Positions 22,885-25,718 of a stretch of DNA of 64,000 nt are shown in pieces. The notes below the pieces were generated by a model. That model did not search any database. It saw only the letters and a program-made list of their open reading frames with translations, and was not told the origin of the DNA. Position 1 is the stretch's first letter. Each line of letters opens with the position of its first letter. A program made the translations under genes and the position numbers. Where the stretch lies: NCBI GenBank assembly GCA_036339735.1, contig JAYZAL010000104.1, positions 32,001 to 96,000 on the forward strand. Reading direction: 5' to 3'. Source of the stretch: Candidatus Poribacteria bacterium (GTDB lineage: Bacteria > Poribacteria > WGA-4E > UBA9662).

Positions 22885-22913
22885 TTGACCCCTAACTTAC
22901 CAGAAAGTATACT
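22885..22913 (+). promoter_or_regulatory. Predicted sigma70 promoter upstream of the intron relic and katG
   Basis: TTGACC, 17-nt spacer, TATACT. Confidence 0.55.
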
Positions 22914-22949
22914 CCAATTCTAGGAACAATTACCGATATTATTAGTATA

Positions 22950-23505
22950 ATAGTGAACCCGATAGCTATCATAACCCGTTGAGGTTTTGAATAAGGCTTA
23001 GCAAGGCACGGCGGTGCGACGTAGGCAACAATTTGTCTTGTGTACGTATCGCAGATACAGGTATTTAAGGGAAGAACAAACGCAAGACAGTGTGAGCCCT
23101 TATTAACGTCAAATGATCTTGAAAAAGATGTGGAAGCAGGCCTTTTATCTGAATTTTGCTGAGACGTACGAAACGGCCAAGCACGCCTTACAGATATTGA
23201 TAAGGCCTAAGAGCTATAGGTTCGATTCCCATTAACCTGATCTAAATGATGTACTGATATATTTCTCGAGCAAGGCTGTTGAGTCCTTTTCGTCTCAAAT
23301 TTGGGCGCGTACTGAATCATGGTTAGAGCTTCAACTTTCGAAGAGCTGAGTACGATCAGTCTCTAAATGAAGAGATCGGATTAGAGGCCTGTCGGCTTGG
23401 GGGTCGTATAATGAAAATTTCGCCAACGATTTCGTGATTCTTGTCAAATACGTTCAGGCAGAGAATAGTGGTAATTTTTAGTGGATCGGTTCATCCAACA
23501 TAAAA
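22950..23505 (+). mobile_element. Decayed, internally deleted group II intron (bacterial class E-like): RNA domains plus RT remnants
   Basis: Pairings 22990-23000/23093-23104 and 23033-23043/23080-23090; ATCTT-GAAA-AAGAT GNRA hairpin followed by GGAAGCAG...TGCTG; broken ORF from 23221 FDSH*PDLNDVL...FANDFVILVK (degenerate YADDFVILVK), then in another frame VDRFIQHK; no domain V/VI seen. Confidence 0.65.
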
Positions 23506-23519
23506 CGATAGGAGAAAAT

Positions 23520-25718
23520 ATGGAAAACACGAGTAAGTGCCCCGTATTGGGCGGCCATCACCGGCACACAGCGATCGGAACTACACCAAATCAAAACTGG
23601 TGGCCGAATCAATTGAACTTAAATATCCTCCATCAGAACTCACCTCAATCCAGTCCTATGGATAAAGGTTTCAACTATGCCGAAGCATTCAATACACTAG
23701 ACCTGAATGCTGTTAAAGACGATATCGAAAAGGTCATGACTACTTCTCAAGAATGGTGGCCAGCTGACTATGGGCACTATGGGGGGTTCTTTATTCGAAT
23801 GGCTTGGCACAGTGCTGGTACTTACCGCATTGCTGACGGTCGCGGTGGGGGAGCCTCTGGGACACTCCGCTTTGCTCCTCTCAATAGTTGGCCCGATAAT
23901 GGCAACCTCGATAAAGCTGTCAGGTTACTTTGGCCAGTCAAGCAGAAGTATGGTCGAAAATTATCATGGGCTGATTTAATCATTCTTACTGGTAACTGCG
24001 CTCTGGAATCGATGGGTTTCAAAACCTTCGGATTTGCCGGTGGTCGTGAAGATGTCTGGGGCCCCGAAGAGGATGTCTATTGGGGGCCAGAGACAACTTG
24101 GCTCGGTGATGAACGCTACACCGGTGATAGAGATTTAGAGCAACCACTCGGTGCAGTTCAAATGGGGTTAATCTACGTCAATCCACAAGGACCGAATGGT
24201 AACCCTGACCCGCTAGCTGCAGCTAGAGACATTCGAGAGACTTTTGCCCGAATGGCTATGAACGATGAAGAAACAGTTGCGCTGATTGCTGGTGGACACA
24301 CATTCGGAAAAACACATGGGGCAGCGGATGCTGATCAGTATGTCGGCCCTGAGCCAGAGGGCGCCGCAATCGAACAACAAGGTTTTGGTTGGAAAAATAG
24401 TTATGGAACAGGAAGTGGTGGCGATGCCATTACCAGTGGATTGGAGGGTGCTTGGACGAACCAACCGGCTAAATGGGATAATGGCTACTTCGATAACCTA
24501 TTCAACTATGAATGGAAACTTATTACAGGCCCTGGTGGCGCGTGGCAATGGACACCTGAAGATCCCGCAGCACAAGGGACAGTTCCAGATGCCCATGATC
24601 CTGAAAAGAAGCACGCTCCCATGATGTTGACAACAGACCTATCCCTGAAAGTAGATCCAATCTACGAGCCAATCTCCCGGCGTTTTCACGAAAACCCGGA
24701 TCAGTTTGCCGACGCCTTTGCTCGGGCGTGGTACAAACTGACCCATCGTGACATGGGACCACGTTCGCGCTGTCTTGGTCCTGAAGTTCCCGAAGAGGAA
24801 CTGCTGTGGCAAGATCCTATCCCCCTCGTTGATTATCAACTGGTCAATGAGCAAGATATTGATTTGCTTAAGGCCAAGATTCTGGAATCTGAACTCTCTA
24901 TTTCACAGCTGGTATCGACTGCATGGTCTTCGGCTGCTACGTTCCGTGGTACAGATAAACGTGGTGGGGCTAATGGAGCTCGTATTCGCCTTGCGCCCCA
25001 AAAGTATTGGGCTGCCAACAATCCTACCGAATTAGGAAATATATTGAACACTTTGGAAGAAATCCAGCAGGAATTCAACAGCTCACAATCTAATGGTAAA
25101 GCAATTTCACTGGCTGATCTGATCATCTTGGGTGGAGGAGTCGCCATAGAAGAAGCTGCTAGAAAGGCCGGAGAAGACGTCGAAGTTACCTTCACACCTG
25201 GTCGTACTGATGCATCACAGGAGCAGACTGACATTGACTCTTTTGCTGTACTAGAGCCGACCGCAGACGGATTTCGGAATTATTTGGGGAGTGGGCACTC
25301 AAGCAAAGCGGAAGAACTCTTGATAGATCGAGCACAAATGCTAACGCTAACTGCCCCTGAGATGACAGTTTTGGTGGGAGGGCTTCGAGCCTTAAATGCA
25401 AACGTTGGCCACTCTCAGCTTGGTGTTCTAACCAATCGACCCGAGACTTTAACAAATGATTTCTTTGTTAATCTTCTTAACATGAACACAGAGTGGGAGC
25501 CGTCCTCCACGTCCGAAGGGCTTTTTGAAGGGCACGATCGATCGACTGGTGAACACAAATGGAGTGGTACTCGGGTGGACCTTATCTTCGGTTCTAATTC
25601 CCAACTCAGGGCTATTTCAGAAGTTTATGCTTGTGAGGACTCTCAGCGTCATTTTGTGGAAGACTTCGTAGCTGCTTGGGTAAAGGTCATGAATCTTGAC
25701 CGGTTTGATCTTACCTAA
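23520..25718 (+). CDS. katG: Catalase-peroxidase
   Basis: [48 protein letters not shown] at 23520 after AGGAGA. Confidence 0.99.

Follow-up and report, generated by a model that had tools for sequence, protein, structure and literature searches.

Gene organization of the katG locus

The katG gene (catalase-peroxidase) of a marine Candidatus Poribacteria bacterium (assembly GCA_036339735.1) is separated from an upstream VWA-domain gene by a spacer of 730 bases (22790-23519), which ends at the katG ATG codon (23520). Both genes lie in the 64,000-nucleotide (nt) stretch of contig JAYZAL010000104.1 that we analysed at its full length, hereafter referred to as the window, whose coordinates are used throughout. 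The original prediction, made from the letters of the window, regarded this spacer as a decayed group II intron forming the whole region between a promoter and katG. From a comparison of the locus with its counterparts in related genomes and metagenomes, we propose, with a probability of about 0.8, that the spacer is not a group II intron, but a Fur-family, PerR-like regulator gene in a decayed state, which would still be transcribed from its conserved promoter. The features of the locus are as follows:

21731..22789, + strand, VWA-domain gene used as synteny anchor (open reading frame, ORF; Pfam VWA, E 4.7e-10)
22809..22836, + strand, terminator-like hairpin with a T-rich tail 3' of the VWA gene (consensus scan, pattern match only)
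22871..22925, + strand, conserved promoter block (-35 TTGACC at 22885-22890, 17-nt spacer, -10 TATACT at 22908-22913)
22926..23049, + strand, putative former 5' untranslated region of the regulator gene, now freely diverging (92/124 positions identical to L064, 74%; fold z -0.60)
22934..22946, + strand, 5' ends of RNA-library contigs from three studies (probable transcription start at about 22920-22934)
23050..23404, + strand, probable relic of the Fur-family (PerR-like) regulator gene, disrupted by several stops, frameshifts and deletions (orthology to the G001 spacer)
23107-23232, + strand, presumed N-terminal helix-turn-helix trace, within the relic
23345-23404, + strand, presumed C-terminal trace (AEYDQSLNEEIGLEACRLGG), within the relic
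23399..23400, + strand, junction of a 73-nt lineage-specific deletion (alignment with L064, L065 and L067)
23407..23412, + strand, TATAAT, proposed earlier as a possible second promoter (present; not kept in relatives)
23419..23448, + strand, FANDFVILVK, a YADD-like motif in the old regulator-katG spacer (judged a chance resemblance)
23464..23519, + strand, conserved block before the katG start, with AGGAG at 23510-23514 (translation-initiation region, perhaps a weak proximal promoter)
23520..25718, + strand, katG (ORF; Pfam peroxidase, E 3.6e-71, two stretches)

The genome of the window (G000) was compared with that of a congener (G001), with two genomes from a sister genus of the same family (G005 and G006), and with a sister lineage (L064, L065 and L067) recovered by a metagenome scan with the promoter block as the query, which also returned one further contig identical to the window over the part compared. 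In G001 and L064/L065/L067, orthologues of the VWA gene stand 5' of the same spacer; the orthologue of L062, which belongs to another Candidatus Poribacteria metagenome-assembled genome (MAG), stands 5' of an intact Fur-family gene. The katG product is 91% identical to that of G001 over 495 amino acids (aa). A DNA search with the spacer in 40 relatives matched G001 alone, at the promoter block only; no second copy of the spacer occurs elsewhere in the G000 genome, where the promoter block is single-copy as well. The consensus scan found one terminator-like site, against 1.0 +/- 1.1 in shuffled sequences.

Fur-family genes and pseudogenes upstream of katG in the relatives

In G006, a 147-aa ORF with a FUR domain (Pfam E 1.1e-21) ends 85 nt before katG, and at the same place G005 carries a damaged Fur copy with an N-terminal frameshift and an internal 54-nt deletion that costs it 18 residues. 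The first ~23 residues of this G005 gene (L045:2183-2570, minus strand) are in another frame, and the HxH cluster is among the 18 residues that are missing by comparison with G006; the gene is either a second damaged copy or the product of an assembly error. In L062, an intact FUR ORF (E 1.6e-26) lies directly after the VWA orthologue and is followed by a rubrerythrin gene. The best NCBIfam models for the intact G006 and L062 ORFs are PerR models, at 106.5 and 94 bits, scores that do not reach the curated PerR cut-offs (180-200) and do not establish membership of the subfamily.

Similarly to the window, G001 shows the VWA gene, a spacer (850 nt) and then katG. Judged from its sequence, this spacer is a clear Fur pseudogene, as indicated by the following lines of evidence. 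First, two Fur queries give colinear high-scoring segment pairs with in-frame stops and one frame change (E 3e-10 and 3e-07, obtained in a small database). Second, the segment G001:C221:1682-1825 matches Pfam FUR across two stops (E 0.005). Third, the frameshift-tolerant alignment of the spacer to Fur proteins yields z-scores of 27, 18 and 9.7, reached by none of 60 shuffles. Fourth, the spacer scores 17.4 and 15.5 bits against a local PerR-like profile.

The window spacer is orthologous to this pseudogene. The two spacers have the same flanking genes; their promoter blocks match in blastn over 70 nt (83%, E 6e-16) and their 3' blocks at E 5e-4; and their interiors align with z-scores of 5.7 (global) and 5.3 (local), reached by 0 of 300 shuffles. 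The window spacer is also syntenic with the intact genes of G006 and L062. Within it, the best Fur-profile match is located at the homologous position (23107-23187, profile positions 24-50). The L064 spacer, 74-86% identical to that of the window, provides a further link, in that the L064/L065/L067 lineage retains a ...GFEL...SCPNCDK... segment, which corresponds to the CxxC of the Fur C terminus and is correctly spaced from the helix-turn-helix trace. From the lineage of the window this CPNC motif was removed by a 73-nt deletion at 23399/23400, evident in the alignment with the sisters, and the deletion junction that had been suspected beside TATAAT 23407 is thereby confirmed. The window spacer is more decayed than that of G001. 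As the G001 relic is far better preserved than the G000 one, though synonymous sites between the two genomes are saturated, the comparison suggests that the regulator was inactivated separately in the two lineages.

Other Fur-family genes are present in G000. On contig C80 there remains a PerR-like paralogue of 146 aa, which shares 47% identity with the L062 protein, and contig C87 carries two neighbouring Fur-family paralogues (39672-39986 and 41515-41811; 175-181 aa) with an additional Cys-rich insert (...CGGC...). The slot between the VWA and PhyH-like genes (window 21731-26850; L060:3486-6082; L062:2609-4739) varies in its peroxide-defence content across the Poribacteria, holding the relic and katG in G000, the intact Fur-family gene and rubrerythrin in L062, and a 2-Cys peroxiredoxin in L060, where the VWA protein is 79% identical and the ORF listing includes neither katG nor a Fur-family ORF.

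Evidence bearing on a group II intron

Several features on which the intron proposal was built are present in the window, namely the stop-interrupted frame with FANDFVILVK (23419-23448), VDRFIQHK in the next frame (23481-23504) and a GAAA-tetraloop hairpin (AUCUU-GAAA-AAGAU, near 23118-23131). According to this proposal, the spacer would be a decayed group II intron that keeps some of its domain I-IV stems and a fragment of its reverse transcriptase (FANDFVILVK...VDRFIQHK), and that was domesticated as a structured leader of katG. FANDFVILVK does resemble the RT5 motif RYADDF[VI][IV]... of the intron-encoded proteins (IEPs), which is found in 31 of 32 intron loci of the phylum, and the tailored pattern [FY]A[DN]DF[VI][IVL][IVL], defined post hoc, occurs a single time, here, in the 8.64 million six-frame codon positions of the genome. 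Group II IEPs are moreover common in the phylum, with a match at E <= 1e-20 in 77 of 176 genomes, but none of the seven genomes of the family of the window, G000 included, has such a match. These seven are mostly fragmented MAGs, in which repeats may be unassembled.

Rfam holds models for group II domains I-IV and for domains V/VI. No Rfam group II family matches positions 22000-24500 at E <= 10, nothing reaches the gathering score in the whole window, and the orthologous loci L064, L061 and L045 have no group II match at E <= 1. At the protein level, RVT_1 (PF00078), GIIM (PF08388) and TIGR04416 match nothing here, either in the genome with stops read through or in the translated fragments.

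We compared the spacer with the 32 group II intron loci of the same phylum, which encode 30 distinct IEPs, and with a sub-profile covering 57 IEP positions around the RT5/YADD region. The motif scores 7.3 bits over 10 positions of this profile and ranks 28th among the 171,647 six-frame fragments of the genome, which lacks any intron reverse transcriptase; therefore about 0.4 such matches are expected per 64-kb window, which is the chance level. In frameshift-tolerant alignments to IEP segments of 147 aa, dinucleotide-shuffled sequences reach the same score in 6 and 10 of 60 cases, and neither blastn nor tblastx against the 32 intron loci gives a match at the motif.

The orthologous copies contain no colinear series of reverse transcriptase motifs. 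At the position of the motif, the sisters carry SANDFMTFV[TK]* and G001 has unrelated sequence. The block containing VDRFIQHK is kept as DNA and not as peptide, G001 reading SGSVYLT*Q*. The sole other IEP-like patch, the L064 segment KAECDQYLNEEMGLEVC (leader positions 540-626, about 23340-23399 of the window), is the Fur C-terminal segment and lies 5' of the motif, where an IEP would need it 3'. Against the IEP profile this Fur-derived segment reaches 9.6 bits, more than the flagged motif, and is equalled or beaten by only four genome fragments.

The nested stems invoked for the intron did not stand out from background, the region 22985-23110 folding at z -1.04, with 28 of 200 shuffles folding as well, and fold z-scores are ordinary (-0.1 to -1.0) across the tested regions. 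FANDFVILVK is judged to be a chance resemblance to the YADD motif. With neither an RNA nor an IEP signal in the spacer, and with a Fur-family pseudogene as the orthologous DNA of the congener, the intron proposal is close to refuted, and of all the readings considered here it is the least probable. A false lead, that of a domesticated group II intron at katG, is thereby removed. That a Fur-derived segment outscores the flagged motif against the intron-protein profile shows how motif matches of 7-10 bits can mislead, and is a warning about short amphipathic matches.

Conservation of the promoter and drift of the spacer interior

The promoter named by the original prediction (TTGACC-17-TATACT, 22885-22913) is present and is the best promoter-like site in 22600-23700 (10/12). 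The number of such sites in this region (three) is no excess over the shuffle expectation (2.5 +/- 1.4). Its conservation is strong: the block 22871..22925 is identical at 55 of 55 positions between G000 and both L064 and L067, where 4-fold degenerate sites are 75-88% identical (versus L064, 75% in the VWA gene and 88% in katG), and at 45 of 55 positions between G000 and G001, where 4-fold sites are saturated (41-48%). The block before katG (23464..23519) is identical to L064 at 55 of 56 positions and to G001 at 42 of 56. Between the two, in the comparison of G000 with L064, the relic shows 293 identities in 341 aligned positions and 93 gap columns, and the old regulator-katG spacer 48 in 64. 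The alignment of katG upstream regions that had been called for thus shows, at the level of DNA comparison, purifying selection on the promoter and constraint on the translation-initiation region, but decay at about the neutral (synonymous) rate in the interior. The original prediction had itself named neutral decay in relatives as speaking against a domesticated regulatory leader, and the many indels and the near-synonymous divergence of the interior therefore refute the domestication on its own terms.

The 20-25 nt before the katG ATG (window 23495-23522; roughly GAACACGATTGGAGGAAATATG) are similar at most of the katG loci retrieved for the order (L047-L059). This likeness extends beyond a Shine-Dalgarno sequence; G005 and G006, both with a Fur gene upstream of katG, differ.

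Apart from any intron, the pseudogene leader might have been taken over as a regulatory RNA, with a conserved hairpin, a processing site or a small ORF tuning the stability or translation of the katG mRNA. In its favour, RNAalifold applied to G000 and three sisters (alignment covering 22920-23065) finds a helix of 13 pairs at about 22976-23020, in which four pairs have changed on both sides and yet remain paired, and the mycobacterial furA-katG transcript is described as processed in passages of PMC2443159. However, the four sequences amount to two lineages, and the helix was picked by the same program that counts the covariation; it is not part of the G000 minimum-energy fold, and local folding gives z-scores of -0.67 and -0.60. 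For the whole leader (22920-23522) the fold z is -0.11, with 9 of 20 shuffles folding as well, the ORF of 40 aa at 23113-23235 is frameshifted in the sisters, and the interior has the synonymous level of identity and the gap columns given above. A regulatory RNA is thus very improbable, if somewhat less so than the intron.

Probable transcription from the old promoter into katG

Part of this stretch occurs in 20 RNA runs from 13 studies, and contig ends were examined in four runs, one from each of four studies. Contig starts fall at 22934 (X3 record 17), 22936 (X2 record 10) and 22946 (X1 record 2), none of them a loose end, and thus lie 20-30 nt 3' of the -10 box. No contig of the four runs covers 22176-22607, a gap that carries no weight as evidence. 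The X2 contig continues unbroken to 24569 and the X3 contig to 24279, both inside katG. The contig starts are a weak hint, which fits a transcription start near 22920 and a leader of ~590 nt. The leader of roughly 600 nt in the original prediction thus stands in its length, a leader of ~590-600 nt derived from the decayed gene being likely from the RNA contigs, but not in its supposed derivation from an intron. Contig depth cannot rank the leader against katG and is uninformative on a second promoter. The X1 contigs break at 23439/23443, at the variants C>T (23440) and T>C (23442), which correspond to strain variation and not to a transcript boundary.

A palindrome, GTCAA-N7-TTGAC, overlaps the -35 box and has 14 copies in the genome. 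An AT-rich stretch resembling a PerR box (22935-22950) was considered and rejected, as it is not conserved in the sisters. The TATAAT at 23407-23412, suggested earlier to be a second promoter, does exist as a sequence, but a role as a promoter is not supported: the relatives read TGTCGT (L064/L067) or GTAATA (G001) at this place; the promoter consensus scan reported no -35 partner for it.

Several observations weigh against the Fur-family origin of the spacer or against its transcription into katG. First, the best Fur-profile match of G000 reaches 5.7 bits only and is equalled by 13 of 34,106 null fragments; Pfam FUR finds nothing at the G000 spacer at E <= 10; and the frameshift-tolerant Fur alignment of G000 taken alone is not significant (z 0.7, 0.9 and -0.6). 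Second, in the genome-fragment null the IEP-like motif (28/171,647) is as rare as the Fur-like fragment (13/34,106). Third, the RNA evidence consists of assembled contigs, from which neither the strand nor true ends nor a single transcript can be read. Fourth, a proximal promoter-like site (TTGTCA 23441-23446 / AATAGT 23464-23469) scores 9/12 in the consensus scan. Fifth, a hunt for the operator through the genome, with the palindrome and with a fuzzy 43-nt block, identified none, and gave neither a second block-like copy nor a regulon-like pattern. Since the Fur signal is weak in G000 alone, the case for Fur depends on the chain of comparisons that leads through G001 and the sisters.

The fourth of these points leads to an alternative in which the spacer has the same origin, but the distal promoter yields a useless pseudogene transcript and katG is expressed mainly from a proximal promoter within or immediately 5' of the 3' block. 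In addition to the score of the site, this alternative is favoured by the 55/56 identity of the 3' block to the sisters and 42/56 to G001, and by the two katG promoters reported for M. tuberculosis in passages of PMC2443159. Against it, the proximal -10 box reads AATAGC in the sisters, with the final T lost, and the -35 box reads CGCCAC in G001; contigs from two studies extend without a break from 22934/22936 into katG; and the 55/55 identity of the distal promoter, beside a freely drifting interior, would be unexplained if that promoter served no gene. We regard a mainly proximal origin of the katG transcript as unlikely, though more plausible than a regulatory RNA.

A model for the evolution of the locus

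In keeping with a decayed Fur-family gene that is still transcribed from its own promoter, we propose that the ancestral state was a single unit of a Fur-family PerR-like gene and katG, like that in the sister genus. The regulator coding sequence (~23050-23404) would then have decayed by stops, frameshifts and deletions, including the 73-nt loss of the C-terminal CxxC. Transcription would start at ~22920-22934, pass through the relic and continue into katG, which would be translated from its own conserved AGGAG/ATG region, and the promoter would have survived because it still feeds katG. The leader of ~590 nt, rather than being a structured RNA, would be the passive transcript of a neutrally drifting pseudogene. 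With its repressor in cis lost, katG is probably either constitutively expressed or under the control in trans of the remaining PerR-like paralogue. The peroxide regulator would thus have died in place, its promoter surviving.

A more far-reaching proposal, which we consider doubtful, is that free-living marine Poribacteria have repeatedly lost a katG-linked PerR-like repressor, and that this loss is adaptive. Such recurrent loss would involve early decay in the G000/L064 lineage and a later, independent decay in G001, together with the damage to the G005 copy (frameshift and 18-residue loss of the His cluster) and the replacement of the whole cassette by a peroxiredoxin in L060. A literature search on perR pseudogenes with catalase derepression gave no relevant title among the best 10 of 981. 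If the proposal were true, keeping the promoter while killing the repressor would lock the catalase-peroxidase on, and the cells, as constitutive removers of peroxide, would act in surface waters as what the Black Queen hypothesis (PMC3315703) calls 'helpers'. Recurrent and adaptive loss of the regulator would in that case bear on the question of who removes hydrogen peroxide in the surface ocean.

Comparison with known systems

The likeness of the spacer to a group II intron with an encoded reverse transcriptase comes down to one stretch of 10 residues that resembles the YADD (RT5) motif, all other tested defining features being absent. The likeness to PerR-type repressors is of another kind: the G006 and L062 proteins match Pfam FUR, with PerR as best NCBIfam model (94-107 bits, below the cut-offs), and the intact genes adjoin peroxide-defence genes, namely katG in G006 and rubrerythrin in L062, whereas the copy in the window is probably dead.

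The closest known system is the mycobacterial furA-katG operon, in which a gene for a Fur-family peroxide-type regulator lies directly 5' of katG on the same strand, and katG is transcribed from the promoter that precedes the regulator gene. The furA-katG operon is also reported for streptomycetes. In mycobacteria, as described in passages of PMC2443159, the two genes are co-transcribed, a 23-bp FurA box covers the -35/-10 region, the joint transcript is processed and katG has a second promoter. An intact arrangement like that of furA-katG is seen here in G006. The locus differs from the mycobacterial operon in belonging to a different phylum (Candidatus Poribacteria), in having a probable pseudogene in place of the regulator, of which only the promoter and the transcript would remain, and in that no operator comparable to the FurA box was identified in it. 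The locus is, on our reading, a pseudogenised member of the furA-katG kind in another phylum, which is an ordinary but tidy evolutionary outcome.

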